Source: Candidatus Woesebacteria bacterium GW2011_GWB1_33_22 (GTDB lineage: Bacteria; Patescibacteriota; Microgenomatia; UBA8517). Taken from it: a stretch of DNA of 51,062 nt. Within the stretch, counting starts at the first letter, position 1. Every line of letters starts with the position of its first letter. A model generated the notes under the pieces. That model was not told the DNA's origin. It searched no databases and saw only the letters and a program-made list of their open reading frames with translations. Below are positions 301 through 16,521 of the stretch, one piece after another. Location of the stretch: contig LBOW01000004.1 in assembly GCA_000989765.1 (NCBI GenBank), forward strand, positions 1 through 51,062. The letters run 5' to 3'. The translations under genes were made by a program, and so were the position numbers.

Positions 301-302
301 TT

Positions 303-779
303 ATGGAAACGCAGCTGCCAAACAATGTTGTAGGACTCGCATCGATGTTCTCAGTTATTATATTGGGCATTTTTGCTCTGATTAGCTTACTAGACAAAAG
401 CCTAAATAATCGGAGAAAAATGATCTCAGATGCGGACAAAGAGCTCATAACCACTTTGCAAGAGCAAGTTAAGACCCTCAAAGAAAAGGCAGAAGGCGCA
501 GAGACACGTTCACTTAATACCCAAATGGATTTCGAGAAACTTAAAACCGAAAACCAAACCTTAAGGGAAATTCTCCAAGGCAGGGATGCCACAACCCTCG
601 AATTTCAAAAAGCAGGAATGGATGCCATAAAGCGAGCTGAGGCATCATATGCTTTGATAGAAAAAACATTTACATTAGTTTCTTCCCACACAGCAAGTAT
701 AGAGAAACTTTATAAAGCCATCGAGAAACACTTAGCCACTATGGAAACAAACAGTAAAGGAGGTGAAAAACATGGGTGA
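303..779 (+). CDS. N-terminal TM plus coiled-coil protein (possible phage lysis accessory)
   Basis: ATG at 303 preceded by AGGAG; one TM helix (VVGLASMFSVIILGIFALISLL) followed by coiled coil. Confidence 0.65.
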   Translation: METQLPNNVVGLASMFSVIILGIFALISLLDKSLNNRRKMISDADKELITTLQEQVKTLKEKAEGAETRSLNTQMDFEKLKTENQTLREILQGRDATTLEFQKAGMDAIKRAEASYALIEKTFTLVSSHTASIEKLYKAIEKHLATMETNSKGGEKHG

Positions 780-1023
780 AATTAACTATCCTTATTACAA
801 AACATTAATCTGGCGCTTCGTCAGAGCTGGAATTGCCGGAGGTGTATCAACAGTCATAGCAGTACAAGTTGTATTGCAACCTGACCTTTCAAATTATAAA
901 GAATACGCTTTAGCAGTTGCTGCTGGTTTTACTGCAGGATTTATATCAGCTATCGCCAAAACGGTAAGAGATTACCTTTCAGAAGGAGACAAAGCACACT
1001 GGACACAGAAGTTGCCTTTATAA
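772..1023 (+). CDS. Small two-TM holin-like protein
   Basis: Strong SD AAGGAGGTG at 757-765; 83 aa with two A/G-rich TM segments and a charged C-terminus, a typical holin layout. Confidence 0.55.
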   Translation: MGEINYPYYKTLIWRFVRAGIAGGVSTVIAVQVVLQPDLSNYKEYALAVAAGFTAGFISAIAKTVRDYLSEGDKAHWTQKLPL

Positions 1024-1029
1024 AAGAGG

Positions 1030-1308
1030 TTATCGCTTACCTTTTTTCTTTTCCTTCGTAGTTGGTTGTTCATTATTTAGTATGCCTTGGAGATCTTTCG
1101 TAAAGCCTTCAAAGGCGTTGGCATTTAACACTGTGAAGTAATTCGCATCCGGAGTCCCTGTAAAAATAAGAGTATCCCCAGGCTGTATATTATGTGCCTT
1201 TCTTAATTTTGCAGGGATAACCATTTGGCCCCGTGAACTTACAGGTGAAGTCCCGAAGACAATCATCTTTGCTTCTTTTTTCTCTTTTTGCTTACTTTTT
1301 TCAACCAT
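1030..1308 (-). CDS. AbrB/MazE/SpoVT-family DNA-binding protein
   Basis: Motif VSSRGQMVIPAKLRKAHNIQPGD. Confidence 0.9.
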   Translation of the reverse strand: MVEKSKQKEKKEAKMIVFGTSPVSSRGQMVIPAKLRKAHNIQPGDTLIFTGTPDANYFTVLNANAFEGFTKDLQGILNNEQPTTKEKKKGKR

Positions 1309-1433
1309 AAAATGAAATTAATTAGGAGGCAGATTATACATCAAATTAAGAAAAATCTTAATAATCTTAACTGAATAGTGTGTATTATACAACAAACCTG
1401 GAGAAAATACGCTCAGAAAATTGTCCATGTAAG

Positions 1434-1442
1434 TGCTATAAT
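1434..1442 (+). promoter_or_regulatory. Extended -10 promoter (TGcTATAAT) for the ncRNA/tRNA-His unit
   Basis: TGCTATAAT lies 6 nt before the start of the closing stem at 1449. Confidence 0.6.
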
Positions 1443-1448
1443 AAAATC

Positions 1449-1562
1449 AGCTGGCGATAGCAAAGGATGTAATGCCCATATGATCTTTAAGAGCTTGAAT
1501 CTGCAATCCCAAATCAGGAGTGATAGCAGTCCTTAGGTTCGAGCTAAGTACGGTCACCAGCT
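1449..1562 (+). ncRNA. Structured ~114-nt RNA of unknown class (divergent 5S rRNA-like candidate)
   Basis: Ends pair (AGCTGGCGA / TCACCAGCT); inner AAGGA/TCCTT helix; GC-richer than flanks; starts right after an extended -10. Confidence 0.45.
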
Positions 1563-1584
1563 CACATTATAGGTCTAGATATTT

Positions 1585-1662
1585 GGTGACTGTAGCTCAG
1601 TTGGTTAGAGCATCTGCTTGTGGAGCAGAGGGTCGGGCGTTCGAATCGCCTCAGTCACCCCA
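1585..1662 (+). tRNA. tRNA-His(GTG)
   Basis: G-1, acceptor GTGACTG/CAGTCAC, D arm GCTC/GAGC, anticodon arm TCTGC-TTGTGGA-GCAGA, T loop TTCGAAT, discriminator C, encoded CCA. Confidence 0.97.
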
Positions 1663-3240
1663 AACGGGAGAAAAGACATAATTTCCCCGAAGTTTAGGTT
1701 CAATTTGTGAGTCCGACACTACTTTTATTTGATTGTCTGCACTTACAGCCTTCTGAATAAGCATAAAAGGAGTATTGGCCTTGATTTCGAGCTTTTTGTT
1801 GTCTAATAACAAGTCCGACCCAATAACTTTGAGGATTGTCTTTCTGTCATCTATCGTCCCATGATTCCATTTATACTTAGCTCTTGATGCAAATTGTAAA
1901 GTATCAAGCATTAAATCAGTCCATGCCTCAACTCCCTCATCTTGAAGTTTAAGTTCCTCATCAAGTTTAAATAGCTTTTGTGTGTATGTTTGTTTCATCT
2001 CTCTATATTCGCTGTCTGTAAGTTGTCCTGAAAGCCACTTGTCATTTAATACATTTAACTTTGATGTCGTTTCTGTATGATCCCTTTTAATAACTGAGTA
2101 TGATATATCTCTAACTGACCTGTCTTGAGATTCTGCCTGTTTAACCCAATACCTAGCCCAGTCAACAAAAGCTTCTGATACTGTCATTGTATCTAAGAAG
2201 GAATCAATTTGTTGATCGAGGTCTTTAAGATTCACTCTCGGTTGAGAACATTCACTTTTTGACTTTCTGCTACATCTCCCGTAATTAAATACCAATCCAC
2301 TCTTTTTTATCTTGGTTTCAAAAGTGAAATGATAGCCACAAGTCTTGCATTTAATTGCTCCTGAGTAAGCAAAACTATGTGTTTGTGTTCTTGGATTAGC
2401 TTTTCCATCCAATACATCCTGCAGGGCGTCAAATTCTGTAGGTGTTAATATTGGCTTGTGAACACCATCGTATATAGATTTGTTGTACATAAACTTTCCA
2501 CAGTAAAACGGATTCCTAAGCATTCTGTAGATTTGACTTCTTGATATTTCTTTTCCGCGTGAGTTTTTAAGCCCCATTCTATTAGCTTGAATTCTTAAAG
2601 CTTCAGTTGAGTATTTTCCTGTCATTGCCATTCTTAACACTTGAGCCATTAAATCAAAATAAACGGGATGAGGTTTAATGTCTCTTTCACCCTGAAGTAG
2701 TGTCATGTCGTTATAATAACCACAGGGCGCAAGTATAGGGGCAATGCCCGCATCAACTTTTTTATTTAAACCTCTCCATGTATTCCTTGTTAAATCTTGA
2801 ATAAATGCTTGTGATTTTCCTCCCTCTACTGCTAAGAGTAGTGATGAATCATCTTTAGTAAATGTTTTAAATGGAGTAACAATAATTTCTATAATCTGAG
2901 AATCTAAAATCCACCGAATGCGCCCCTCATCAACAGGGTTTCTAAAAAGTCTTGAAGTGTCCCATGCCAGTATTCCCTTGATGTCTTTTCGTGTTTCAAG
3001 TAGTTTAACCATTTTGTTAAACTCAACACGATCAGGAGCTTTTGCACTTTTAGATTCTGAAAACTCCTGAAGAATTGGTAAGTTATTTTGTTTTGCATAT
3101 GCACGAAGCACCTCAAATTGAGAATCAATACTAGCCATTTGACGATCATCGCCTTCTGATGACTTTCTACAATATATTACAAACCATGTTTTCATAACTT
3201 CGCTATCCTTGGGCAGGTGTTGAAGGTTAGATAACTTCAT
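1651..3240 (-). CDS. Large serine recombinase (integrase)
   Basis: Catalytic YCRKSSE, DTSRLFRN, recombinase domain (LRNPFYCG), zinc ribbon CKTCG...C...C, coiled coil. Confidence 0.95.
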   Translation of the reverse strand: MKLSNLQHLPKDSEVMKTWFVIYCRKSSEGDDRQMASIDSQFEVLRAYAKQNNLPILQEFSESKSAKAPDRVEFNKMVKLLETRKDIKGILAWDTSRLFRNPVDEGRIRWILDSQIIEIIVTPFKTFTKDDSSLLLAVEGGKSQAFIQDLTRNTWRGLNKKVDAGIAPILAPCGYYNDMTLLQGERDIKPHPVYFDLMAQVLRMAMTGKYSTEALRIQANRMGLKNSRGKEISRSQIYRMLRNPFYCGKFMYNKSIYDGVHKPILTPTEFDALQDVLDGKANPRTQTHSFAYSGAIKCKTCGYHFTFETKIKKSGLVFNYGRCSRKSKSECSQPRVNLKDLDQQIDSFLDTMTVSEAFVDWARYWVKQAESQDRSVRDISYSVIKRDHTETTSKLNVLNDKWLSGQLTDSEYREMKQTYTQKLFKLDEELKLQDEGVEAWTDLMLDTLQFASRAKYKWNHGTIDDRKTILKVIGSDLLLDNKKLEIKANTPFMLIQKAVSADNQIKVVSDSQIEPKLRGNYVFSPVWGD

Positions 3241-3413
3241 TTAACACTAACCCTTTCTAAGGTGTCAATATCCTTTTGGTCTGGTTGTGCTAAAACTTTA
3301 AACATTTCGATAAAATCGTTTGCCTTTTTAACAACTTCTTCGTCTGATAAGGAAACGCTAAATTGTTTAAAATATATTTCTTTAAATTGTTGATATGCTT
3401 CAGTTGGTAACAT
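3237..3413 (-). CDS. 58-aa protein coupled to the integrase (not in ORF track)
   Basis: MLPTEAYQQFKEIYFKQFSVSLSDEEVVKKANDFIEMFKVLAQPDQKDIDTLERVSVK; its TGA overlaps the integrase ATG (ATGA) and it fills the gap between neighbours. Confidence 0.75.
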   Translation of the reverse strand: MLPTEAYQQFKEIYFKQFSVSLSDEEVVKKANDFIEMFKVLAQPDQKDIDTLERVSVK

Positions 3414-3765
3414 TTTTTTTACTTTCTATCTTGTCAATCTTTAAACTCTGATCAACAATGGTTTCAAAAGCCTTTTTCATTTCGTCTAAATAATAACTTT
3501 CTCTCTTTGATGAAGCTTCAATTGAATTTTGCAGTGTAGAGATTAAAGATTCCTTGTCTGCCAAGGTTTGTAAGAGTGTCATAATTGCGGAGTATTTATC
3601 TTTTAACCAATTCTTTAAACAATCCTCACAAACTGTTACATCAGTAATAAAAGCAGGAGATTCACATAATAAAATATCATTTGGAATGTATCTTGCTTTT
3701 GACCCCAGTTTTCCACAATAAAAACAGCTATTTATTCTGACTTCTTTTGTTTGTTGTTTAGTCAT
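3400..3765 (-). CDS. Hypothetical protein, CxxC...CxxC zinc finger plus coiled coil
   Basis: CFYC and CEDC pairs; in operon with the primase. Confidence 0.7.
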   Translation of the reverse strand: MTKQQTKEVRINSCFYCGKLGSKARYIPNDILLCESPAFITDVTVCEDCLKNWLKDKYSAIMTLLQTLADKESLISTLQNSIEASSKRESYYLDEMKKAFETIVDQSLKIDKIESKKNVTN

Positions 3766-3767
3766 AA

Positions 3768-4061
3768 TTAAACAGCTTCCCCTCCAAAAATAATTTCTGC
3801 GTATTGTAAAGTTGAGAGTTTGTCTAAATTAATGTTTCTTGTTTTAATATCCACATCATAATCTGGAGTGTGAATTAGAAAGCTTTTCAGTGCTATTTTT
3901 GAGTTAGTATTTAGTATTCTAATTACTTCTTCTAGTGGGAAATGAATCTTTTGTTTTTTAATAAAACAATTATCACAATTCCTTAATAAATAAGTTCCAA
4001 GGTTTTTTAAACCTACATCTATTTTTTCTGGTCTAAGTGATTTGATAATTAAATATTTCAT
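3768..4061 (-). CDS. Hypothetical protein
   Basis: Tightly packed in operon (1-2 bp gaps). Confidence 0.65.
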   Translation of the reverse strand: MKYLIIKSLRPEKIDVGLKNLGTYLLRNCDNCFIKKQKIHFPLEEVIRILNTNSKIALKSFLIHTPDYDVDIKTRNINLDKLSTLQYAEIIFGGEAV

Positions 4062-4062
4062 A

Positions 4063-6582
4063 TTAAAAAGGTATGTCGTTACTGTCGTCGTCTAAGTCTT
4101 CTACAAAAGGAATAACTTTTGGTTCTGATGGATGGATTGAGGCTGGTGTAGGAACTTTATCAATTTCGTGCCTGAGTGTAGCAACTCGGGTCGTTTTACT
4201 ATCCCTATGTGAGATTGTTTTTTTTCTAGGGAGCGATAGTAAAATGGAGTTAGTTGCTACACCCGTGCCTATTTCTTCAATAGTTCCTACACCTTTTTCA
4301 GTTTTTGGGTCATTTTTAGTCGTTTCTGTCTCCGTCAAAAATGGTGTTTTTTGTTCTGGGGCCACATATCCTTCCTGTAATGTAATTCCTGTATAAAACA
4401 TTCCCGTTTTTTTTCTGTCCCGAGGATGTCTGTCTCCCATTTTGGAGGTAAAAGCATTTCTAGTTAGAGCATCGTTATACTTTAGGCCTGATTCTTCGCA
4501 CCATGTACCATAGGTCTTGAATAATAATGAAGCCTTAACCTCTGCTTCTGGTGATTCAACACACTTATCAGATATAAAGTCAAAAAGATCATCATTTTCT
4601 GCCCTATAAGCGTCTGTTTCTAATCTAATTTCATCAGGAACAGGCTTCAACTCCTCTTTTTGCCAAGTCAAACAAGCTCGAACTAACCATACAAGTATTC
4701 CCTCTGCTTCTTGCTTCAATATTGCTTTTAAATTTTTGTCCTCTTTCTCCCCAGTAAAAGACACATTGAAGGGTATTAACCTAACTCTTCTCCAAAACCC
4801 CTTACTGTCATCATCACTTTTAGGTTTATGGTTTATAAATAACCATAACTTGGCTACTGGTTTAAAAGTAAAGAATTCCTTATTTAAAAATCTCGCCCTG
4901 AAGTTATCCTCACCTGTCAAAATCTTGAATCTCCTTTCATCCATTTTGCCTGTTGTTTGTGTCTCTGAACTTATCAAGAATCTTTTAAACTCTAGCCCTG
5001 CAATATCATTAGTATTTGTGTTTTGTGAATTCTTTTGTAATAAAGAAGCAGGGGCGTCCTGCGTATAATCTCCAAGTACAGTGTTTAAAGTATTAAACAT
5101 AACACCCTTACCATTGCTACCCGTCCCAAAGCAAAAGAAGGCGACCTGTTCCCTTGTATCGCCACTTATTGAATAGCCGAGGGCTTTTGATACAAAATGA
5201 ATAACTTCTTTATTACCGTTAAAAATCTCACTAATAAACCTCTCCCATCGTGGGCAGGTAGCGTTTGGATTAAAATTAATACGAGTACTCATCGTGATCC
5301 GATCCTCAGGTCTTCCGTCTCTTAACAAACCAGTCTTTAGATCAATTACTCCATTTTCACAACACAACAACATTGGATCTTCGTCCCAGTTTTCTCCTGA
5401 GTCAGCTACGGGTAGAGTACTTTTAGTTAATCCTAAACAGGAGTCAATCATCTGTTTGTTTTCACTTTTAATTGCCCATTTGGTTACAAAAAGTCTTTTT
5501 TTAAAGTCTTTTGTCTGAAGAGCTTCTCTTTGTCTAACCCTACTGGCCTTTATAGCTAATCGATTTACACTACCATCTACATCAGGTTGCCATCTATGTC
5601 CTCCCCAAACTAACCACCTACCTCGTTTATTATCAAATCTTAACTTATCTCCATATAGCTTAGCCAAGAATTCTGCATTACTAGCGTCTGTCAAATTTTT
5701 ACCTGCTTCTGCTTTTTCTATTTTTTCGGCCAATTTTTCCTGAGTTTCCTCATCAAACTCTGGAGGATTTTCTTTAACCTTATTCTCGGCGCTTCTCCAA
5801 AGCACTTCAAGATCCTTATCTGGTTCAGGAGGGGTACAGGTTCTATTGTCTGCCCCAAACCTTACCCAGCCAGCTTCTTCATCTATTCTACCCATCACAA
5901 TATCGTTCCAAAGTGAGTCTGCTAACTTTAAATGCAGATTATGTCTTTTTCCTATACTAAGTCCTAAAGCAGAATCCCTATCAAATCTCTCAGTTTCCCT
6001 TATTTCTTCACCCAAAAATGGTAACTTTGGTAATTCACTGTTGGGAGCTTCTTTTTCCCACTCATACTTATATATTTTCCCGTCTCTTTCCGCATAACTG
6101 GGTGTAATTACACAAAAACCCCCGTCTCCTCTTATATCCATTGGTTTATTGCCGATCCTAACTTTATTACGAGTTTCTATTCCTGACCACTTAAAGAATA
6201 CATGTAATCCTCCACTAATTGTTTTATCTACTCTAGTACTTTTTAAATTAAGATTTTTTATTAAATCCAACCCATCGACCTCTACATCTACCACTACTAC
6301 TCCGCTAATCTTTCCTGTGATAATTCCTATTCCGTTTTGGTTTGTATTATCAAACCACTTATGTAATTCTTCTTCTGTTGGTAATCTTCTCTGATATTCC
6401 TTCCATAAATTTAAAGCAGGTTTCTTTTTGAACTTCTGTTCTTTTTTATCCCACCATACTTTAGCTGGTACAACAGACCATCCTAAATCCAAATACTTTT
6501 TGGCGGTCTTAAATGTTATTTCATCAAATGACTGTATGGACTGCGGAGTTTCTGTCTGACTGTTTTGTTTATTGACATCCAT
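4063..6582 (-). CDS. P4-family primase-helicase (Prim-Pol + D5_N + SF3 helicase)
   Basis: Prim-Pol motifs VVVDVE, GGLHVFF, DIRGDGGF; D5_N (TDASNAEFL); Walker A GTGSNGKG; WRRVRLIPF. Confidence 0.93.
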   Translation of the reverse strand: MDVNKQNSQTETPQSIQSFDEITFKTAKKYLDLGWSVVPAKVWWDKKEQKFKKKPALNLWKEYQRRLPTEEELHKWFDNTNQNGIGIITGKISGVVVVDVEVDGLDLIKNLNLKSTRVDKTISGGLHVFFKWSGIETRNKVRIGNKPMDIRGDGGFCVITPSYAERDGKIYKYEWEKEAPNSELPKLPFLGEEIRETERFDRDSALGLSIGKRHNLHLKLADSLWNDIVMGRIDEEAGWVRFGADNRTCTPPEPDKDLEVLWRSAENKVKENPPEFDEETQEKLAEKIEKAEAGKNLTDASNAEFLAKLYGDKLRFDNKRGRWLVWGGHRWQPDVDGSVNRLAIKASRVRQREALQTKDFKKRLFVTKWAIKSENKQMIDSCLGLTKSTLPVADSGENWDEDPMLLCCENGVIDLKTGLLRDGRPEDRITMSTRINFNPNATCPRWERFISEIFNGNKEVIHFVSKALGYSISGDTREQVAFFCFGTGSNGKGVMFNTLNTVLGDYTQDAPASLLQKNSQNTNTNDIAGLEFKRFLISSETQTTGKMDERRFKILTGEDNFRARFLNKEFFTFKPVAKLWLFINHKPKSDDDSKGFWRRVRLIPFNVSFTGEKEDKNLKAILKQEAEGILVWLVRACLTWQKEELKPVPDEIRLETDAYRAENDDLFDFISDKCVESPEAEVKASLLFKTYGTWCEESGLKYNDALTRNAFTSKMGDRHPRDRKKTGMFYTGITLQEGYVAPEQKTPFLTETETTKNDPKTEKGVGTIEEIGTGVATNSILLSLPRKKTISHRDSKTTRVATLRHEIDKVPTPASIHPSEPKVIPFVEDLDDDSNDIPF

Positions 6583-6589
6583 ATTATTT

Positions 6590-6647
6590 AAAAAAAATCC
6601 CTAGGTGCTGGCGGGCAACCTAGGGGTTTTCCTAAACTTCCGCCAGC
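6590..6647 (-). promoter_or_regulatory. Terminator-like hairpin with loop-complementary upstream segment (attenuator/pseudoknot) in the primase leader
   Basis: 13-bp stem 6594-6606/6618-6630 followed by a U-tract on the minus strand; loop GCTGGCGG (6607-6614) is complementary to CCGCCAGC (6640-6647). Confidence 0.65.
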
Positions 6648-6743
6648 TTTATTTGGGGCGAGTATAAACTCGCAACAGTAGGTTAAAGCATTGAAAGATA
6701 TAAATATATTTCAGGAAGATGTGTAAATTGATGAAGAATAACC

Positions 6744-7508
6744 TTATTGATACATTTTCTCAACAAATTTTTTATAACGATTATACAGTCTAGCGATATC
6801 AATATAACTATATTTAGCCTCAATACTATCATCATTTATATTTAAATCCGCATGGTTGTCATTAATATAATTAGAAATTTCTTCGAAAGATTTCCCTTCA
6901 AATTCTCTTTTAAAAAACACAATCTGTGAGATTGCAAGTTTTTGTTCATTTATATTTCTTCCAAACTGTTTGGGAAGATTTTTGGCAATGAGACGCAACT
7001 TATCTGAAATTTCTTTGCTTTTTATCCAAACTGAAAATTCATTAGGTGTAAAATAGCTCTGAAAAATAATTTTAGGTCTTCCATGCGGATCAATAAAAGG
7101 TAATGGAACATCGTGTTCTGGATCATACAAATAAAAGGGCTCTCGTTTAGGCACAGGAAAAAAATGCGTAAGTATTAAAATTTGTATTGACAACTCCCAA
7201 TATAATGGCAAACCCGTCTTTTTAAGCAGAAATTGTGTGGATGAAGATAATTTGGTTTGAAAAGTTAAATCTAATTTTTTAATAAGTGATAATAATATAT
7301 GTTCGCTAGCAATCTCAGGATAATTTAGAGGCTTACCAAGTTTAATTATTTTTCTAATTCCGCCCAAATCCGAATATAGCTTATCTGAATCTTGAAGAAT
7401 CTTAGAAATTATTATTTCATACTTAGTTGCTTCTAATGCTTTATTATCCAAAATAAATTTATAATCTACCCAGATATTCGATTTATTAATCTTGTTCACT
7501 CGCCCCAT
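6744..7508 (-). CDS. Hypothetical protein (possible C-terminal DNA-binding helix bundle)
   Basis: 254-aa ORF; TAAAAT 6 nt upstream of the ATG. Confidence 0.7.
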   Translation of the reverse strand: MGRVNKINKSNIWVDYKFILDNKALEATKYEIIISKILQDSDKLYSDLGGIRKIIKLGKPLNYPEIASEHILLSLIKKLDLTFQTKLSSSTQFLLKKTGLPLYWELSIQILILTHFFPVPKREPFYLYDPEHDVPLPFIDPHGRPKIIFQSYFTPNEFSVWIKSKEISDKLRLIAKNLPKQFGRNINEQKLAISQIVFFKREFEGKSFEEISNYINDNHADLNINDDSIEAKYSYIDIARLYNRYKKFVEKMYQ

Positions 7509-7733
7509 GATTATATTTTACTCTAAATAATATGTATTATGAAAAAGTCAATTAATGAAGAGGAATAACAATTTTTTAAAGCTCGAGTATCGTTAACTCA
7601 TACAATTAATACTATATAGTTACAGTATCAGATACCATATAAGTTTATATACTTTTGAGGCTAAACTTACAACCAATTTTAATGGTACTTATATAGTATT
7701 GATTTAACCACAATTTTATTGAGATGATATCAA

Positions 7734-7949
7734 TTATCTGAAATGAAATAATTCTTTTATGTGAAGTTTAAGTTCTCTCGCTATTTTAAAGATAAGATAT
7801 ATTGAGGTATCAGTAACACCTCTTTCTATATTGCTAATAGTAGCAGTTTGGACACCGATACTAGAGGCTAATTGCTCCTGTGATATACCTTGAGCTTTTC
7901 TGAGCCGTTTGATTTTAGTGCCCAACTGTTTATTTATTTTAAATCCCAC
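7734..7949 (-). CDS. XRE-family HTH regulator
   Basis: IKRLRKAQGISQEQLA...TISNIERG. Confidence 0.92.
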   Translation of the reverse strand: MGFKINKQLGTKIKRLRKAQGISQEQLASSIGVQTATISNIERGVTDTSIYLIFKIARELKLHIKELFHFR

Positions 7950-7987
7950 AATTGAAGATTAATCAATCACAAAGTAAGTCTCTATAC

Positions 7988-8006
7988 GCTAGATTTTATG
8001 TCTAGC
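7988..8006. promoter_or_regulatory. Candidate operator palindrome GCTAGA-N7-TCTAGC
   Basis: Lies between the divergent XRE gene and the cargo operon. Confidence 0.35.
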
Positions 8007-8054
8007 CACAAGTTTATATTTAAAGTAGTGCTATAATATTTCTATCATCATAAA

Positions 8055-8537
8055 ATGGTCAAATATATATTGTTATCAATGTTATCAATTGGAGTTTTCG
8101 TAGCCATGCAATTTATATTAAGGATTTATTTCCCCGATGTTTCTTCTTATTCTGCTTCTAGTTCAAATGAGAACTCAACTATAATCTCCCCGACTACACC
8201 AACTTTCACTTCAGATCCAGACCCAATAATAACCTGTACAACCAGTGTTTCAAACTGTAAAGGTCAAACCTTGATTACGAGAAAAAGCGATTGCTCGAAA
8301 TCCATTTGTTGCGGACTACTGTATAGTGAGTGGAGACTTTTTCCTGACATAAGCTCGTGCCAACATCAACAGCTTATCGAACAACAAGCCACAAGAGTTC
8401 AGCCAATTCCCTATAGAGCACCTTCACAATATATACCATATGTGCCATCAAACCCAATACCTGAAACTCGAATCAATTTAGACCCAAACAGTTCACAATC
8501 ATATCCAGATTATCTTCATATCGATTTAAGCCCTTGA
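8055..8537 (+). CDS. Membrane-anchored Cys-rich hypothetical protein
   Basis: N-terminal TM, S/T/P linker, six Cys. Confidence 0.7.
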   Translation: MVKYILLSMLSIGVFVAMQFILRIYFPDVSSYSASSSNENSTIISPTTPTFTSDPDPIITCTTSVSNCKGQTLITRKSDCSKSICCGLLYSEWRLFPDISSCQHQQLIEQQATRVQPIPYRAPSQYIPYVPSNPIPETRINLDPNSSQSYPDYLHIDLSP

Positions 8538-8576
8538 TGATAAATACATATGTTAAAAAATACTAATTCGAAATAA

Positions 8577-9416
8577 ATGGAAATAATTAATAACAAGTCA
8601 AACAAAGGACATGGAAGAAACTGGCTGGTTATCAGTTTAATTTCATTATTGCTATTAATTGCTGGTGCATTATTAATAAGTTTAGAAGTTGGAACAATTA
8701 ATGGTCGCCCACCTCATTGGATAATGATTCCATCAATTATTTCGCTTGCTTCATTCATTATTTTTCTGATTGTTTGGTTAATAGTTAAGTTAAAAAAGTG
8801 GGCAGTATTACCAATTATCTGTTTAATGCTACTAGTTATTAGTATTTATTATATAGCCCAAAAAGAATTAACTAAACTTGACGGTGGCAACAATAATAAT
8901 AACCTATCTGAAACATTTACACCGACCACCTCTTCGACTTGGAATCGTTTTTATTCAACAATAGGAAATTTTAATATTGAATTTCCCTGTGTAGCTAAAA
9001 CGATGGAGACGAACACTAGTAAAATGGATAATGGTTCCGATATGACGAATACAACTTATGCGTGTATGGGTATTACGGGTTCATATATAGTCAGAGCTGT
9101 TTCTTTCCCAACCGAACCTAACATTCTAGATTCTGCAAAAGAACAAGGATTTCTTGAGCAAATGCTTCAAGCATACATAAGTGCTATGGGTAAAAATAAT
9201 CAACTTGAATCATCTTCATTTTCAGAGTTTAAGGATCATCAGAGTATTGATTTTCTAATATATGACACAAATAAAGAATCTTATACTAAGGGTAAGTTGT
9301 TTTACATACAGACATCAAACATAACATCTTTTTTTGGGCTGTCGGCTACATCAGTTGCTATTGACGACATAGATTTAAACTACTTTATAAATTCATTTCA
9401 GATAACAAACAAATGA
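8577..9416 (+). CDS. Three-TM protein with extracellular domain (possibly PsbP/DcrB-like)
   Basis: Three TM helices, then WNRFYS...FNIEFP and terminal YFINSFQI pattern. Confidence 0.7.
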   Translation: MEIINNKSNKGHGRNWLVISLISLLLLIAGALLISLEVGTINGRPPHWIMIPSIISLASFIIFLIVWLIVKLKKWAVLPIICLMLLVISIYYIAQKELTKLDGGNNNNNLSETFTPTTSSTWNRFYSTIGNFNIEFPCVAKTMETNTSKMDNGSDMTNTTYACMGITGSYIVRAVSFPTEPNILDSAKEQGFLEQMLQAYISAMGKNNQLESSSFSEFKDHQSIDFLIYDTNKESYTKGKLFYIQTSNITSFFGLSATSVAIDDIDLNYFINSFQITNK

Positions 9417-9961
9417 ATCATAAAATTAATATAACAACTGAGACTGATAAAACAGTTGAAAACAATTCGGACAAACTAAGTAATTTAAGTTGGATTTTAA
9501 AATTTATTGGTAAAAGTTTATTAATATTAATAGTTTTATTAGTTTTAAAAACCTTGGATTTTTCGTGGATAAAAGGTGAAGTCGTTGGATATAAAAAAAT
9601 GTGTATTGATTGGAGTAATCATGATGATTGTTTATTATATACGGCTGTGAATACAAAAGAGACATTCAAGGTATATGCAAGTAACCAGACTGTTTTTGAA
9701 TTAAGTGAATATGGAACAGATAAATATACTAAATGCACAGTTGTAGACAATAAAAACTGGGAATGTACATATGACGATGAATCAGCAAGATTCGGTTTCG
9801 CCAGAGGAAAGTACTTTTATCGAGGAATCGAATCTGATTATTCTTTAATTTATAAAGCAGTTCAAGAATATGTTGGTCTATCGAGATTTGAATGGTTAAT
9901 TCAAAAAAATATAGACAGTGGATGTATTCCTATAGACCCGTTATGCTATTTATTACAATAA
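9413..9961 (+). CDS. Membrane-anchored Cys-containing hypothetical protein
   Basis: ATGA overlap with the upstream gene; one TM; paired Cys. Confidence 0.7.
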   Translation: MNHKINITTETDKTVENNSDKLSNLSWILKFIGKSLLILIVLLVLKTLDFSWIKGEVVGYKKMCIDWSNHDDCLLYTAVNTKETFKVYASNQTVFELSEYGTDKYTKCTVVDNKNWECTYDDESARFGFARGKYFYRGIESDYSLIYKAVQEYVGLSRFEWLIQKNIDSGCIPIDPLCYLLQ

Positions 9962-9968
9962 TTTGCTT

Positions 9969-10280
9969 ATGAAAATACTTAATAAGAAAGCAACAGTTTT
10001 GACATTTTTAGTTATATGTATAGTTATTTTTTATTTTGTTAATAAGTTCGAATCTTGGAATTTACTCATTTGCAAAGATCCAATTCTAGTAACTGGAACC
10101 TTACATTGTCAACAAAATGAATATGAATTAAAAGGTTATAAATCACAAGCAAGTTGTATGGAAAAAGGAATAGAATTATCAAAGGGGAAAGATTTTGAAT
10201 GTGGTAAAAATTGCCATGAAAATAACGAAGGATTTAATGTCTGTGACGAAATTTGTAATAAGTACAGAGGGTGTAATTAG
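9969..10280 (+). CDS. Small secreted/anchored Cys-rich protein
   Basis: N-terminal TM; FECGKNC...CDEIC...C. Confidence 0.7.
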   Translation: MKILNKKATVLTFLVICIVIFYFVNKFESWNLLICKDPILVTGTLHCQQNEYELKGYKSQASCMEKGIELSKGKDFECGKNCHENNEGFNVCDEICNKYRGCN

Positions 10281-10293
10281 TATATGCAACAAA

Positions 10294-11853
10294 ATGAAAC
10301 TGTTTCATAAATTCAATTTTACTAGTGAAAAAAGGAGAACTACTCTCGAAAAATCAAGTTTGATTATATGGTTAGCCTCCTTATTTATCCTGTCAGGCTT
10401 AGTTTTACTTGCACAGGTTTTTAAAATTACTTCTACATGGTTTGTAATAGTTGGAATTATTTCATTTTTTATTTTTCTTGCCTCCCTCGTTATTTGGCTA
10501 ATATTGAAATTAGTAAAATATCCGAAATTCAATTTATTCTTCTGGTTAGGTAGTTTACTTATGTTTATTGTTAGTTACATATTTCTTCATATATGGACTT
10601 TTAATATGTCAGAAGTAAATCATGCCTATCTTGTATTATTCAACTTCTTAGTTTTAGTGTTATTTATTACATCTTTTGTTGTTTGGCTTTTAACGATTCT
10701 TAAACAAAAAGGATTTGATCTTATAAAATTATTAGGTAATTTGTTTGGTATTTTATGTTCATTAATTAGAAAATTATTCAAAAAACCTTTACAACCTTTA
10801 TCTGTTATAGGAACAATTTTATTGATTGTTTACATCGGATATCTCAATATTAGACTTACAAACATAGAAAAACATTTTGGAGGACGGAATCTTCTCAAGT
10901 GTTCTCTTGACAATATTCAAAAGGATATGGATAAAAATGTAGTTCGTATTGAAGGAAATTTAAGTGAAGGATCAGGTTTTGCTATAAACGAGAATCAAAT
11001 ATTCACTAATTTCCATGTAATTGAAGGCGAGACCTCACCTAAAATAATATTTTCTAATGGAAACATCGGAACACCAACAAAAATTGTTGGAAATAAAGAA
11101 AAAGACATGGCTATATTAACACTACTAAATCACAACCTTACACCGCTTCCCTTTTTTGGTTATTTAGGTACAGCAAAAGAACCCCTAAACATGGTTTTTG
11201 GCGAACCTCTATATGCAGTAGGTTATGCAATGGGGTCTGATCTCAAGGGCGGAGTTACAATAAATAGTGGTTCATATAATGGGGAAAGATATCAGAAAGC
11301 AAACGATATCAACTATATTCAGACAGGTGCATCGCTTGTTGGAGGCATGAGTGGGGGTCCTCTAATTAATTCTTGTGGACAGGTAATTGGTGCAAATACA
11401 TACGGAGTTGCTGGGCTTTCTATGTTTATTGATATTAGTTCAATTCAAAATTCGATAGGAGAACTTTCCGATAAAGATATATCAAAAATCAAAGTCGATA
11501 CTTCAAATCCTCTAGGCATTGTCAATGCATTTTATACATATATTGGTGCAAGAGATTTAAAAAAAGCATATGATTTAATTGATTCTAAAAGACTTGACGG
11601 ACAAACATTTGAAGAATGGTCTCAAGGATATGCAACAACACTTCAAGTAATGTTGCTTTCTGCGAATGTCGACTCAATTAATAATAATAAAATTAATATA
11701 AAATTAGAATCGCAGGATTGGGTAGATGGTTCAATAGTGTTCAAATATTTTGAAGGCTATTGGATAATTGATGATAATCTCAAATTAAAAGATGTTAGTA
11801 TCAAATCTATTGAAAATCCTGATTATCATTTTTTTTATAATGAAACAATTTAA
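10294..11853 (+). CDS. Multi-TM trypsin-like serine protease
   Basis: GSGF, TNFHVI (His), DMAIL (Asp), GMSGGPL (Ser); about five N-terminal TM helices. Confidence 0.9.
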   Translation: MKLFHKFNFTSEKRRTTLEKSSLIIWLASLFILSGLVLLAQVFKITSTWFVIVGIISFFIFLASLVIWLILKLVKYPKFNLFFWLGSLLMFIVSYIFLHIWTFNMSEVNHAYLVLFNFLVLVLFITSFVVWLLTILKQKGFDLIKLLGNLFGILCSLIRKLFKKPLQPLSVIGTILLIVYIGYLNIRLTNIEKHFGGRNLLKCSLDNIQKDMDKNVVRIEGNLSEGSGFAINENQIFTNFHVIEGETSPKIIFSNGNIGTPTKIVGNKEKDMAILTLLNHNLTPLPFFGYLGTAKEPLNMVFGEPLYAVGYAMGSDLKGGVTINSGSYNGERYQKANDINYIQTGASLVGGMSGGPLINSCGQVIGANTYGVAGLSMFIDISSIQNSIGELSDKDISKIKVDTSNPLGIVNAFYTYIGARDLKKAYDLIDSKRLDGQTFEEWSQGYATTLQVMLLSANVDSINNNKINIKLESQDWVDGSIVFKYFEGYWIIDDNLKLKDVSIKSIENPDYHFFYNETI

Positions 11854-11947
11854 CTTCCTACTTCAGTTCGGACTTAAATAATATTTCATCCCCGCAGCAC
11901 CTGTTAGACACTCCCTGAGCACATTCGCTATTTATTGAGGATCAACT

Positions 11948-12493
11948 TTATATCTCTAAAACTTTTCTTAAATCAGCCTGTGTGTAATGATAATAAAGTG
12001 AGGTAGACGATAAACTAGTATGACCCACAAATCTTTGAACCTGAGGTAAAACTGCACCTTTGTTTAATTTATCCGTTATGAAGTGATGACGAAAGCTATG
12101 AGGTCTAATATTTTTGTTTATTCCAGAAGCAGTAACACGTCTCTTTAAGGCAAAATATGCTGATAATCTACTCATTGGCTTGTCTAACCTACCCTTGAAG
12201 ATATAGCCTGTCTTTCTGCCTCCTACGAGCTCAGTTAAAGCCTTTGAGACCCTATCTGTTACAGGCACGATTCTATCCTGTTTGTTCTTTGTATTTCTTA
12301 ATGTTAAAAACTTTTCATTTGAGTCAAAATCTTCAACTTTTAAATTAGTAACTTCTGAAATTCTTGCTCCACTATCCCAAAGTAATTGAATGATTGTATT
12401 TATAATAAATCTCTGAGAAGGATGACAATTTATAGGAGCATTTAAGATTTTTTCTAGGTCTTTTTCTGTTAGAAATGGGTGTGATTTTACCAT
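11948..12493 (-). CDS. Short tyrosine recombinase (catalytic domain only, Xer-like)
   Basis: GARISE, TKNK, HSFRH, VGH, Y nucleophile; only 181 aa. Confidence 0.9.
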   Translation of the reverse strand: MVKSHPFLTEKDLEKILNAPINCHPSQRFIINTIIQLLWDSGARISEVTNLKVEDFDSNEKFLTLRNTKNKQDRIVPVTDRVSKALTELVGGRKTGYIFKGRLDKPMSRLSAYFALKRRVTASGINKNIRPHSFRHHFITDKLNKGAVLPQVQRFVGHTSLSSTSLYYHYTQADLRKVLEI

Positions 12494-12540
12494 TTTCGTT
12501 ATCCTATAACTGTTAAATTTATTGTTTTGTGCCTAAAGTA

Positions 12541-12568
12541 TATTAACATAATAGGTATTATGTATATA
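12541..12568 (-). other. dif-like recombination site
   Basis: Minus strand TATATACATAA-TACCTA-TTATGTTAATA; 11-6-11 layout; right arm resembles the XerD arm TTATGTTAAAT. Confidence 0.7.
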
Positions 12569-12694
12569 ATAGGCTTAACAACATACATTGTCAATATGAG
12601 TATCTTTTTTAGGGTATTTCGTTAATAAATTCTAGGGTTCTTACTTCTTCAGTAGGCACAATATGCATTTTAGTAAGCTTTTTATCTAAAACAA

Positions 12695-13342
12695 TTATGG
12701 TTTTCTCAATTTCCAAATACTTTTTGCATATATTTTTAATAAAAGTTTATAAATCTCATTATGAATGATAATTAAATATCCTTTCATATTAATTTTTTTA
12801 GGTGGAATTAGAAAAGTTAAGCCCCTACTACCTGTTCTAATTCTTGAATAATAATTAATACCCCTAGCATCCTTAAAAGTAATAAAAAACTTATCCTGAG
12901 GTCGTTTATGTTCTTCTCTTGGATCAATTGAAAATTTCATAAATTCACTCAAATCTTTATTAATTTCTCCATTACTATAAGAATTTGCAACGAGAACTTT
13001 CTTCTCACCTCTTTCAATAACATTTACACCTTTAATCAAAAATTCAAATTCATGAATCTTTTGGTCTTTTAAATAAACATGTAAAATCTTTTCAATTTTA
13101 ATGTTATATGCCGATCCGTTTCCAATATTTTTAATTAAATATTCTAAATCACCAAGCGTTTTTCCTGTTGGTTTAATTACAAGTAGAGGAAGGGTTGATA
13201 ATTCATTAGCTTCACTTGTTCTTTTATTACTTAAAAAACCAGCAATCGCAGTAAGAGATAATAATATTAGCGTTATTAAGTTGATAGAAGAATCAGGTAA
13301 GGAAATAGAAGATAGTCTTAGAAGATAGTTCCAGATTTCCAT
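12695..13342 (-). CDS. Hypothetical membrane-anchored protein
   Basis: TM helix, then IKNIGNGSAYNI motif; TATAAT 6 nt before the ATG at 13342. Confidence 0.7.
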   Translation of the reverse strand: MEIWNYLLRLSSISLPDSSINLITLILLSLTAIAGFLSNKRTSEANELSTLPLLVIKPTGKTLGDLEYLIKNIGNGSAYNIKIEKILHVYLKDQKIHEFEFLIKGVNVIERGEKKVLVANSYSNGEINKDLSEFMKFSIDPREEHKRPQDKFFITFKDARGINYYSRIRTGSRGLTFLIPPKKINMKGYLIIIHNEIYKLLLKIYAKSIWKLRKP

Positions 13343-13428
13343 AGGTTGATTATACTTCTTTCTAATCAAAAATAAAAAAGTGTAGAATAATTTGAATTCT
13401 AGAATCTATTTAAGCTATACTACTAACA

Positions 13429-13848
13429 ATGAATAACAAAACGCAAGACAATGACGACATGCGAGACACTCTTCATCCAGTATTTTCAATAAGTGAAATA
13501 AAAAGTGTCAAAGAAATCTCTGAAGAGTATTACAAAGATTATAGGGAATATTGGGATAGCACTTTAGACTCTATTCATAAAATGACTAATAAGTTAAAAA
13601 CAGACAAAAAATATAAGATCAACGAGGAGGAAAATGAAATCCTTAAAAAAAGATTTGAATTATCTTGTAATTGGGAACATAAACAGAAAGAAATTTCATA
13701 TATGATTGAGACAAATATAAACTTTCTCAATGGTAAAACCAAAGGCTCTCTGTACGACATAGTGTGTAATGCAATTTACCCAGATTTTACAACCTCTAAA
13801 GAAATAGATAAAAGAGTTAATGACTGGTTAAAAGGGCAACTTCTTTAG
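13429..13848 (+). CDS. Hypothetical protein
   Basis: 139-aa ORF; TATACT 7 nt before the ATG. Confidence 0.65.
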   Translation: MNNKTQDNDDMRDTLHPVFSISEIKSVKEISEEYYKDYREYWDSTLDSIHKMTNKLKTDKKYKINEEENEILKKRFELSCNWEHKQKEISYMIETNINFLNGKTKGSLYDIVCNAIYPDFTTSKEIDKRVNDWLKGQLL

Positions 13849-14071
13849 ATGTATCTAATTTGGAGAATCTAGATACTCTTGAAGGAGCAATGCGAGTTTC
13901 ATATTTATTTCTTTTATTTACTCAAACAAATTCTTTTGCTTGTCAGATAGAAATTATAGAATATTTCAAACATTAATCACATATAAATATCGTTGAGATA
14001 AATCTTTCATCAGAAGTTGTTTTCTAGTATAATCATAATCACTATGGAAAGGATCAGTGTGATATTCACCT

Positions 14072-14085
14072 CCTGAGCCACCCCA
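14072..14085 (+). repeat. attR-like copy of the tRNA-His 3' end
   Basis: CCTGAGCCACCCCA vs tRNA CCTCAGTCACCCCA. Confidence 0.75.
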
Positions 14086-14120
14086 TAGTTTGTTGAATTT
14101 ATTCATGATATAATTTAAAT

Positions 14121-15032
14121 ATGCTTCTGGATAAAGTTAATGTTACTTTTAAGGCGGGAGATGGTGGAAATGGCAAAGTTTCTTTCAAGAAAATTGGTCG
14201 TGGCCCTGATGGTGGTAGTGGTGGCAAGGGTGGAGATTTATATGTAGTTACCTCTTCTGATTTAACTCTTCTTAATCAATTTAGTAGGCAAGATTTAGTG
14301 GTTGCTGAACACGGCGTAGATGGTGGAAATAATAACCGACATGGAAAGAAAGGAAATGACATTGAAGTAGTACTACCCGTTGGAACTTCAATTATTAATT
14401 CTGAAACTGGTAAAGAGGTAATTGAGTTAACCGAAATAGATCAAAGAGTAAAACTTCTTAAAGGTGGTAATGGAGGTTGGGGTAATTTTGAGTTCAGAAG
14501 CGCTAGAAACACCACTCCAATGAAGGCGCAATCCGGTTTTCCTGGAGAAACATTAAATGCTACTCTTAATTTAAAATTAATCGCGGATTACGGTTTAATT
14601 GGCTTACCCAATTCTGGTAAAAGTAGTTTACTAAACGAATTAACTGATGCAAAGGCTAAAATTGGAAACTATGCTTTTACTACACTTTCACCAAACCTAG
14701 GTGTGTTTAAAAATAAAATAATTGCAGATATTCCAGGACTAATAGAAGGAGCCGTAGATGGCAAAGGGCTTGGTATTAACTTTTTAAAACACATTGAAAA
14801 GGTCAAGGTATTAATTCATTGTATAGATGCAACTTCTGATAATTACAAACGTGATTATAAAATAGTTAGAGATGAACTTACCAAATATAATTTGGAAATG
14901 TTAAAGAAAAAAGAAATAATTTTACTTACAAAATCTGACTTAGTAAGTGGAAAAAGGAAATTTATGAATTCTATCGGAGTTTCTATTTATGATTTTGAAA
15001 GTATAAAAAACTTAATAAAATTACTTTCTTGA
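14121..15032 (+). CDS. obgE: GTPase ObgE
   Basis: Gly-rich Obg domain; GLPNSGKSS, YAFTT, DIPG, TKSD. Confidence 0.96.
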   Translation: MLLDKVNVTFKAGDGGNGKVSFKKIGRGPDGGSGGKGGDLYVVTSSDLTLLNQFSRQDLVVAEHGVDGGNNNRHGKKGNDIEVVLPVGTSIINSETGKEVIELTEIDQRVKLLKGGNGGWGNFEFRSARNTTPMKAQSGFPGETLNATLNLKLIADYGLIGLPNSGKSSLLNELTDAKAKIGNYAFTTLSPNLGVFKNKIIADIPGLIEGAVDGKGLGINFLKHIEKVKVLIHCIDATSDNYKRDYKIVRDELTKYNLEMLKKKEIILLTKSDLVSGKRKFMNSIGVSIYDFESIKNLIKLLS

Positions 15033-16313
15033 AACTGTGTAAAAAATTGGGTGATAAAGAAAAATTGCGGGAACATCTTCAACAATAAATCTTTGAAAAT
15101 CTAAGTAAATTTTCTTTCTTATTTCAAGATCTAATTCTGTCCTGCCGTCTTCCAAAAGTTTGTCTATTCTTGCATTTTTATACCTACTTATATTTGTTCC
15201 TTCTTGCGTTGAATGCCATAGACTGTATTGATCTGGATCCTTAGGTGTATCAACAGTAGCTAAAAAAACTTCAAAATTTTGCGGGATGTCGGGAGTAACT
15301 TCAATTTCGGTATTTACACCTACTTCTTTCCACTGTTTTGAAATTTTTTCTGCCGTTTCTAGTAAGTTAGGTAAAGTTGAAATTTTAATCAGCATGCCTT
15401 TTGCATCCTTTGCTTTTTCTGTATCAATTAAATATTTTTTAACTTGAGGGTTATAGCTCCAAGAATGTGGTGAAATTGGGCCAAAAGCCCTAATTTCGTT
15501 TAATATTTCTTTGTCAAGCGCATAGGCTAAAGCTTGTCTAATCGATTTATCTCTAAATTTTTCATTATTTGTATTAAAAAATAAAGCAACAAAATTTTCA
15601 TAACTTACTTCTTTGGTCAAATGAAGCGTTTTCCAATTGTTAAATTCACCAACATCTTGTAAACCTTCGATTGTATCCACTTCGCCGAGTTTAAGTGCTA
15701 ATTTAATCCTTTCTTCTGTGGGGTAAAACTTATATATTATTTTTTCATTTTGTTTATTTTTAATTGTCAATTTTTGGACAATACCACCGACCAATGAAAT
15801 ATTTTTGACCTTATAGTCACCTAGACCTAAAAGTCCTTTTTTAAAAATAGGCCTTGATAAAATAATTGGAAAGGCTGAAAAATTACTTTGTAAATTAAAT
15901 TTGAGCTCATTATCACTGAGGACTTCTATGGTTGCATCAGAAAATTCATAGTTTATATCACTAGCAATTAATTTTTTGTCGTCTTGCCACTTTACATTCT
16001 CCATTATTTTGAAAGTCCATGTTTTACCTTCATCGGTAGTTTCCCACGAAGTAGAGATATCGGGAACGACACTGCCATCTGTTTCAACTCTGGTTAATCC
16101 TTTTGAAATTTGATTAGTTATTTTGTCAGGCAAATTATTTGTGGTAAATCTTCCCACTATTCCAATTCTAATTGTTGTAGAGGTGAAATTAGGAATAAAA
16201 AAGATAAAGATTATAAAAAAAAGTATACCAATGCCAACACTAATAACAATAATGGCCTTAAATTTAATTATAAAGGCTTGAATAAGTCGAAATATGTATC
16301 TTGTTGATAACAA
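15021..16313 (-). CDS. ABC transporter substrate-binding protein (family 5-like)
   Basis: N-terminal TM; VVPDISTSW...GKTWTF; IRQALAYALD; DVPAIFLY. Confidence 0.85.
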   Translation of the reverse strand: MLSTRYIFRLIQAFIIKFKAIIVISVGIGILFFIIFIFFIPNFTSTTIRIGIVGRFTTNNLPDKITNQISKGLTRVETDGSVVPDISTSWETTDEGKTWTFKIMENVKWQDDKKLIASDINYEFSDATIEVLSDNELKFNLQSNFSAFPIILSRPIFKKGLLGLGDYKVKNISLVGGIVQKLTIKNKQNEKIIYKFYPTEERIKLALKLGEVDTIEGLQDVGEFNNWKTLHLTKEVSYENFVALFFNTNNEKFRDKSIRQALAYALDKEILNEIRAFGPISPHSWSYNPQVKKYLIDTEKAKDAKGMLIKISTLPNLLETAEKISKQWKEVGVNTEIEVTPDIPQNFEVFLATVDTPKDPDQYSLWHSTQEGTNISRYKNARIDKLLEDGRTELDLEIRKKIYLDFQRFIVEDVPAIFLYHPIFYTVSRK

Positions 16314-16314
16314 G

Positions 16315-16521
16315 TTAGATAAAAAGTAAAATCACCGACATTATTAGAAAAATTGCAGTCACAACAAAGGTTAATTTAAAAACCATTTTTTCTACTCCAC
16401 GCCTGGTAAATGATGAAGAATTAGAACTTCGACCAAAACCTGTACCTCTAACTTGTAATAAAACAAAAATTATAAGTACAAATGCGGACAAACTTTGAAT
16501 TATTTGAAAAGTATTTTTCAT
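16315..16521 (-). CDS. secG: Preprotein translocase subunit SecG
   Basis: VLLQVRGTGFG...TRRGVEK between two TM helices. Confidence 0.85.
   Translation of the reverse strand: MKNTFQIIQSLSAFVLIIFVLLQVRGTGFGRSSNSSSFTRRGVEKMVFKLTFVVTAIFLIMSVILLFI

Follow-up and report, generated by a model that had tools for sequence, protein, structure and literature searches.

The window, i.e. the whole stretch of 51,062 nucleotides analysed here (contig LBOW01000004.1 of Candidatus Woesebacteria bacterium GW2011_GWB1_33_22, whose genome comprises 860 kb in 19 contigs), carries near its left end the gene of a large serine recombinase (LSR, integrase) that runs through its own attachment (att) site at the 3' end of a tRNA-His gene. 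A preliminary description of this DNA had proposed exactly that, and the concept proves to be right and general for the clade: the same crossing is found family-wide among homologous integrase loci, and this generality is the more interesting result. The features at the junction are the following:

1586-1662, plus strand: tRNA-His(GTG) with encoded CCA (ARAGORN; Rfam RF00005, 67 bits).
1656-1662, plus strand: left copy of the CACCCCA core, common to both ends.
1651-3240, minus strand: large serine recombinase (integrase) of 529 aa, defined by the open reading frame (ORF) and domain matches.

The integrase possesses all domain features of the large serine integrases, namely the Resolvase, Recombinase and Zn_ribbon_recom domains: PF00239, the N-terminal resolvase catalytic domain, is matched by residues 21-165 (E = 1.1e-15), PF07508 and PF13408 are matched as well, and R25, K26, S27 and all other invariant columns of a 32-sequence alignment are kept. 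The protein ends in ...SPVWGD followed by the stop, and W-G-D-stop occupies 1651-1662, antisense to the acceptor/CCA end of tRNA-His; ORF, ARAGORN and Rfam agree with the preliminary description on this point. The stop lies 9 nt inside the tRNA gene, past the shared core, and is held by the acceptor stem. Because the integrase ORF crosses the recombination core and the tRNA supplies the stop, the C-terminus cannot stay the same on excision. In the 90% cluster to which the integrase belongs, all members end in ...SPVWGD or ...SPVWGG, the sole exception being the variant P0125, described below with the left flank. From the symmetry of the family half-sites, which served to estimate the crossover centre, the central dinucleotide would lie near 1656-1658 (tRNA positions 70-72), give or take about 2 nt. 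The tRNA-His gene supplies the B arm of attB and, in attL, the tRNA side.

With the integrase sequence as query, 163 relatives were obtained. Among the best 120 of the 163, the C-termini are mostly [WVLM]-G-[GDE]-stop or an antisense-tRNA peptide (..RRDSNPQ..), and a few longer relatives carry another tail, x-L-P-x-x-V-R-T. We gathered 164 loci, to which genomes and metagenomes contributed 80 each and viral contigs 4; viral contigs gave no match to the integrase alone, and the 4 viral loci were obtained with an alignment as query. In 81 of the 164 the integrase stop falls within, or directly adjoins, a tRNA gene of convergent orientation, and the isotypes are diverse (His 33, Asn 19, Gln 7, Ser 5, Arg 4, Gly 3, Trp 3, Asp 3, Tyr 2, Glu 1 and Val 1). 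The register is nearly invariant: tRNA position 73 is the first base of an integrase codon (frame 0) in 78 of these 81 loci. The remaining loci either run off the contig (18) or have no called tRNA (65), and a regular expression divided these 83 into 29 with [VIF]-R-T tails (the attP form), 19 with antisense-tRNA-like tails and 35 that are other or truncated; two further x-[VIF]-R-T tails were added by eye. Another conserved feature of the C-termini of the family integrases is a [RFL]-[LF]-E-P motif lying 13-25 codons upstream of the crossover. The DNA that encodes it resembles the T-loop (TTYGAACC; in the window ATT GAA CCT, 1696-1703). Since its distance from the centre varies, this DNA is not a simple half-site.

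LSR genes are common in this order, with matches at E <= 1e-40 in 67 of 139 genomes. In the source genome itself there are four LSR genes, with contigs C6, C16 and C19 among their locations. That at C6:21078-22670 terminates within the antisense of a tRNA-Asn (22631-22703), and another, on C16, runs into a sequence encoding the peptide AQLRFAELRK.KH.RTSRSPH, which recurs upstream of tRNA-Gly in the same-genus genome G002 (L009 1762-1941). A search of positions 1100-2200 of the latter against Rfam returned no family except tRNAs, and no tRNA-Gly(TCC) was found in the source assembly.

If the integrase frame crosses the core, the far end of an integrated element should hold the continuation of that frame. 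We therefore looked for a copy of the tRNA end in the 68 integrated loci whose upstream flank extends over 1.5 kb or more. In eight of them (L012, L019, L046, L058, L082, L123, L137 and L161, where L123 and L137 are nearly the same element) such a copy lies 7-10 kb away and continues in the integrase frame as x-x-x-x-x-V-R-T..., i.e. as an in-frame V-R-T tail. No in-frame tail copy was found in the other 60 loci within the flank of at most 10 kb, and longer elements consequently escape this search. The tail at attR of L019 matches the C-terminus of a 572-aa homologue, P0081 (64% identity over 28 aa, E = 2e-9), which indicates that the integrase tail of the relatives is split off to the element's far end on integration. 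As to the check called for in the preliminary description, for an open and conserved frame at homologous attR regions, the frame is there in eight of the 68 loci; the peptide of the window is unrelated to the family tails.

The geometry of the half-sites indicates what the conserved part of the tail is. When attL and attR are aligned on the shared core, the tRNA arm shows the T-loop TTCGAAC 15-21 nt from the tRNA end, and in all eight pairs of the relatives the tail arm shows TT[CA]GAAC, or a degenerate form of it, 5 nt farther out. The consensus sequences display the same displacement of about 5 bp, with GGA at 9-11 and TTCGAACC at 12-19 in the B arm (n=81) and TGGA at 8-11 and TTCGAACC at 17-24 in the P arm (n=30). 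For LI integrase, the motif of the zinc-ribbon domain (ZD) occupies 16-24 in attP and 11-19 in attB, a 5-bp shift, according to Rutherford et al. 2013 (PMC3783163), and the +5 offset of the T-loop copy agrees with this attP/attB offset. As GTT CGA ACC translates to V-R-T, the V-R-T part of the conserved tail is DNA; synonymous codon differences are rare among the identical residues within the P arm. Farther out than this arm the picture is different in two pairs of loci: L092 and L169 share 19 of 21 residues with 11 synonymous differences, and L166 and L173 share 10 identical residues with 7 synonymous differences. Such frequent synonymous changes show that, in those subfamilies, selection acts on the remainder of the tail as a protein sequence.

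A structural model was obtained with AlphaFold2 for the attP-form integrase of L106 (584 aa) from a 39-sequence alignment. Its mean pLDDT is 85.2 and its fold matches the structures of the SPbeta, PhiC31, Bxb1 and LI integrases. Long paired helices (373-483) are predicted within the ZD, and the crossover codons, at about 555-556, fall inside a predicted helix spanning 552-567 (pLDDT about 87-91).

We propose the following mechanism for the family. The 3' part of a tRNA gene would serve as attB, with the crossover in the acceptor stem; the outer motif of its B arm would be the T-loop TTCGAACC, a motif of the type that zinc-ribbon domains bind. The attP site would lie within the last 10-40 codons of the integrase gene itself, its P arm carrying a copy of the T-loop 5 bp farther from the centre, which the integrase frame would read as V-R-T. 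Integration would then swap the C-terminal tail for a few antisense-tRNA codons (in the window, G-D-stop), and excision would restore a tail. Together with an island at the tRNA-His of the window, this mechanism is our best explanation as a whole, and we consider it probable.

Several observations weigh against it. The symmetry of the P' arms is weak and heterogeneous. None of the 29 regex-classed attP-form loci has terminal repeats, only part of the contig being covered for many of them; several of these loci lie on contigs of more than 150 kb, and their flanks encode, apart from defence-type genes, a relaxase and a coupling protein, also histidine kinases. Circular permutation of the elements could not be demonstrated from cargo homology, because few element genes are shared between loci. 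As for the joints that the preliminary description suggested looking for, we compared contigs of four (X3, X17, X18 and X19) of the 20 public runs, all of which are stored as contigs, with positions 1-16500 of the window, and neither an attP nor an empty attB joint occurs in these contigs, which drop rare forms; this says nothing about excision; the X3 contigs contain the integrated form only.

The other end of the element in the window is less easily placed. The features that bear on it are:

11948-12493, minus strand: tyrosine recombinase of 181 aa, catalytic domain only (Phage_integrase, E = 1.2e-33).
12609-12665, minus strand: site B, a candidate alternative P arm and tail (outer-arm position weight matrix (PWM), frame).
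13966-14106, minus strand: 46-codon ORF MNKFNKL+WGGSGG...YVINV with stop, of which the final 39 codons are the proposed integrase tail.
14070-14085, plus strand: site A, a direct but imperfect repeat (13/16) of the 3' end of tRNA-His.
14121-15032, plus strand: obgE, the host gene of the right flank (GTP1_OBG and MMR_HSR1).

Site A is the right end named in the preliminary description, according to which the minus strand from 14085 reads WG and 37 further codons up to a TGA at 13966-13968. Translation from 14085 to 13900 confirms this, giving WGGSGGEYHTDPFHSDYDYTRKQLLMKDLSQRYLYVINV up to the stop, with 37 residues after WG. The core heptamer CACCCCA stands at 1656-1662 and again at 14079-14085; it occurs five times in the window against 2.5 expected, which is not significant. 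The longer imperfect repeat, CGCCTCAGTCACCCCA versus CTCCTGAGCCACCCCA, agrees at 13 of 16 positions, and at up to 3 mismatches there are 2 matches in the window, where shuffled sequences give an expectation of 0.04. Among about 12,600 island positions site A is the best core match (11/13, compared with 7-10/13 in the eight verified pairs). Moreover, homology to G002 begins at about 14080-14085, i.e. there is a synteny break within about 5 bp of the site.

Other evidence sets site A apart from the family. A PWM derived from 38 P arms of the family gives its outer arm a score of -5.6 (rank 1772 of 102,088), compared with a median of about 21 in the training set and with 14.9 to 26.4 in the eight verified pairs; the shifted outer motif is degenerate, ATCACAC against TTCGAAC (4/7). 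A hidden Markov model (HMM) of the His-subfamily tails did not single out site A among 1286 six-frame segments of the window, nor did it recover or rank site B, and BLASTP of the 37-aa tail against P0085 gave no match. The nearest attP-form relatives of the integrase, P0004 and P0006 (49-50% identity), have different, canonical ..P..[VI]RT tails. In the window, the 37 codons form part of a longer ORF, of 46 codons, whose own ATG (14104-14106) lies in the obgE-side flank, and no protein that fuses the integrase body to the site A tail was found in databases of 1.84 and 5.8 billion protein sequences. The tail has three matches there: P0122 is the same 46-aa ORF; P0121 is identical over the first 42 residues and then continues with a part of MurG, i.e. 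it is a fusion to a 5'-truncated murG; and P0123 is 74% identical in the tail part, with the same stop position, its upstream part being antisense to the 5' end of obgE. The notion that GGSGG in the tail represents the glycine loop of MurG was rejected; Pfam aligns P0121 from residue 40, to profile positions 80-131.

The distribution of the 46-codon ORF in relatives adds to these points. It is present in 3 of 125 genomes of the family and open in four of four lineages; in two of these the locus lacks an LSR. In G101, tRNA-His is followed by 6.7 kb without an LSR (methyltransferase, epimerase, glycosyltransferase), then by the ORF, two genes and obgE; in G106, a 433-bp mini-island at tRNA-His, likewise devoid of an LSR, contains the ORF and a small zinc-ribbon ORF. 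The ORF homologues begin with the host's own tRNA-His end: in G101 the agreement is 12/16, and the mini-island of G106 is flanked by an 8-bp direct repeat of its tRNA-His end, with which the tail ORF starts. Over the first 31 nt, G101 and G106 share 97% identity (a similar 31-nt match in G105 is also 97% identical), as opposed to 68-72% for the obgE-side flanks in the same comparison. This pattern fits an att-type scar that always begins with the end of the host tRNA-His and does not fit a tail maintained because the integrase needs it; the scars in the relatives may be recent remnants of elements related to that of the window, which would be compatible with the pattern. Site A itself is an att-type scar with a good core and an atypical outer arm and tail.

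The gene obgE is syntenic in G001, G002, G101 and G106, and the T arm of the window's tRNA-His is identical to that of G001, another genome of the same genus. No empty site was found; G001 and G002 hold other genes between tRNA-His and obgE. In G002 the slot is taken by an ORF of 207 aa without a known family (L009 2128-2790), the right junction of which, GACAAACCTATAG, looks like a decayed version of the core sequence CCACCCCATAG; this ORF may be another old insertion at the same point.

Two placements of the right end can be reconciled with these data. To the first we assign a chance just short of even: the island would be composite, with site A an older att scar, or a conserved small gene begun in such a scar, that has been kept beside obgE across genera, and the true attR of the LSR element would have been deleted or would be site B, at about 12660, which would yield a 544-aa isoform ending in WG-VPTEEVRTLEFINEIP. 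The conservation of the tail ORF in lineages without an LSR speaks for this, as does the second, tyrosine-type recombinase at 11948-12493, which hints that the island may be composite. At site B the minus strand, from 12660 to 12609, reads CAT ATT/GTG CCT ACT GAA GAA GTA AGA ACC... in the integrase frame, with TG at the family centre and E-V-R-T at the family codon positions (V-R-T being codons 8-10); GTAAGAACC resembles GTTAGAACC of verified attR arms, and by eye the tail resembles those of the nearest attP-form relatives (RTLEFIN vs RTHFIAN and RTSLIN). Its outer-arm PWM score of 11.3, the best in the island, is nevertheless at noise level: chance matches reach 11.7 in the window and 18.4 in L198, the latter within an SBP gene encoding LLEDGRTELD, so that the PWM alone cannot place attR. 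Site B also has a core identity of 2/13 and lacks the TGGGG left of the centre that simple integration must leave, and the 224-aa ORF on its right does not represent the remains of an LSR. We treat site B as a lead only.

The second placement, which seems possible to us although we do not favour it, takes site A (14079-14085) as the cognate attR. Excision would then produce the 565-aa isoform of the preliminary description with the tail GSGGEYHTDPFHSDYDYTRKQLLMKDLSQRYLYVINV, and the ORFs of G101, G106 and P0123 would be scars of related elements. For that isoform the open frame continuous with the integrase, the core repeat and the synteny break stand, but the outer motif, the family tail and the databases, which lack the fusion, argue the other way, as do the ORF's own ATG in the flank and its open state in genomes without an LSR. 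This placement gains from the attP reconstructed with site A, which shows an inner inverted repeat, CTCCTG..CGGGAG, by eye, and from the tail homologues, which begin with their own tRNA-His ends and are conserved as DNA over the first 31 nt; at the P-arm position, the G101/G106 copy shows GTTTGCAC in place of the family's GTTCGAAC.

Whether the exchange of the tail matters to the protein is a separate question. The preliminary description had regarded integration as a built-in directionality or stability switch, and we infer that the truncated and the full-length integrase may differ in activity or stability. Two points bear on this, the protein-level selection of the tail in other subfamilies and the confidently predicted helix spanning the crossover in L106. 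The altered form of the Mx8 tyrosine integrase reportedly also behaves differently. A rival explanation, which we rate as a tentative one, somewhat doubtful but not negligible, is that the ORF crosses the core without any regulatory meaning: the overlap with attP would reflect compactness or mimicry of the tRNA, the tail would be dispensable and the isoforms would behave alike. The variable length of the tail after R-T (1 to about 28 residues across attP-form loci) accords with this, and so does the conservation of V-R-T, which is explained by DNA, synonymous changes being few within the P arm; in window DNA of 28% G+C, the estimated chance that 29 codons beyond this arm stay open is about 0.09. 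It is at odds with the two subfamilies that keep tail residues beyond the P arm through many synonymous changes, and with the model of L106, in which the tail would form half of a confidently modelled helix.

Returning to the proposed mechanism and the element in the window, the stretch from 1663 to about 14078 is likely to be an island inserted at the 3' end of tRNA-His, and at least its left part would likely be an integrative, self-replicating element, as its gene content suggests. The remaining assigned features of the island are:

3237-3413, minus strand: ORF of 58 aa that overlaps the integrase start, a candidate accessory or directionality factor.
4063-6582, minus strand: primase-polymerase/D5-type helicase (Prim-Pol, D5_N, DUF5906 and Pox_D5 domains).
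7734-7949, minus strand: Cro/CI-type HTH regulator (HTH_3, E = 1.7e-15).
10195-11853: trypsin-like protease, within the island.

The primase-polymerase/D5 helicase appears to be the replication module of the element. Homologues of the 58-aa ORF stand directly upstream of the integrase in 18 of the 164 loci; it has no match to Pfam or PHROG families and is a candidate recombination directionality factor. The rest of the island between the integrase and obgE consists of membrane ORFs and of ORFs without assignment, including two between the tyrosine recombinase and obgE, and domain and family searches recognised no virion genes among the island proteins. In X3, a contig joint at depth 4 connects 10783 to the earlier position 7781, the two sides being separated by 6 additional letters.

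The left flank shows peculiarities of its own. Positions 70-1504, which include a MazE/AbrB-like gene (1030-1308), are 100% identical in contigs of X17-X19 and diverge at about 1563-1565, 20 bp before tRNA-His, so that this 1.5-kb piece also exists in another context; in X3 the left flank has a higher depth (13-16 vs 8). A strain breakpoint at 1563/1564 is seen in contigs of X3 and X17-X19 and in P0125. The latter is an integrase variant of 535 aa, without differences in the first 497 residues, that skips 1564-1704 in frame, thereby losing tRNA-His and the final 17 codons of the integrase, and continues into the left flank; it is either a real deletion or an assembly artefact. Just left of the breakpoint lies one more feature:

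1530-1557, plus strand: T-arm and acceptor-CCA-like fragment CTTAG GTTCGAG CTAAG TACGGTC A CCA, recognised by eye.

This fragment is called by neither ARAGORN nor Rfam (which finds only tRNAs in positions 1300-1700 of the window), and its antisense peptide, ELVTVLSSNLRTAITPDLGLQ..., has two homologous copies in L105 (4681-5127). Elsewhere in the source genome there are a further tRNA-His(GTG) call (C2:91614-91686), aberrant and odd in its T arm, and tmRNA (C13:16177-16511), for which ARAGORN predicts an unusually short tag, AKAEL followed by the stop.

Compared with characterised systems, the family combines features that are otherwise met separately. With the integrases of A118/LI, SPbeta (SprA), PhiC31 and Bxb1 it shares the domain set (Resolvase, Recombinase and Zn-ribbon with coiled coil) and simple att sites in which the outer motif is 5 bp farther out in attP; unlike them, it has a tRNA gene as attB, with the T-loop as outer motif, and its attP lies inside the integrase ORF. 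Crossing of the integrase ORF, so that the integrated and the free gene differ, is shared by the window and its relatives with two kinds of tyrosine integrases, as the preliminary description had noted: the ORF of Mx8 IntP extends across attP and integration alters its C-terminus (PMC4383910; title of Tojo et al. 1996), and SSV-type integrases have attP in their gene, which integration splits (PMC8371274). Those enzymes are tyrosine recombinases with long segments of tRNA identity, and in the SSV type the gene is split, whereas the present family consists of serine recombinases that exchange only the last 16-40 codons. The window integrase, being a serine recombinase, is therefore not a member of the Mx8/SSV group, though the arrangement works alike. 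A third parallel is offered by the mycobacteriophages BPs, Brujita and Charlie, where attP lies in the repressor ORF, the viral and prophage forms of the repressor differ at the C-terminus, and integration removes a C-terminal degradation tag and acts as a switch (PMC3694055). In both cases attP is inside an ORF and the C-terminus changes on integration, but in these phages the repressor is crossed, the integrase is of the tyrosine type and the tail is a degradation tag, while here the integrase itself is crossed. Serine-recombinase sites within genes are mentioned in a review of integrative and mobilizable elements (PMC5704250). In the literature covered by our search, which leaves aside subscription papers and supplements such as the att-site tables of LSR surveys, no serine integrase is described as targeting tRNA genes or as crossing its own attP.

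Serine integrases are major tools of genome engineering and are generally described as targeting protein-coding or intergenic sites. The broadest reading of our data is that of a widespread, hitherto undescribed LSR clade, abundant in Patescibacteria-like small genomes and present in other phyla as well, that reads the universal tRNA T-arm by its zinc-ribbon domain, is retargeted to at least 11 isotypes via the acceptor stem and, on integration, swaps off a conserved C-terminal helix as a built-in switch from a free form able to integrate to a shortened form in the prophage; in this full form we consider it rather unlikely. A clade that reads the T-arm and the acceptor stem would explain the colonisation of very small genomes, and this mode of targeting would offer landing sites that are predictable and nearly universal. 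With the att site inside the integrase gene, the 3' end of that gene directly reveals attP, which is of use for predicting att sites in metagenomes. Should the exchange of the tail affect the activity or stability of the integrase, the arrangement would provide directionality control without a separate factor.

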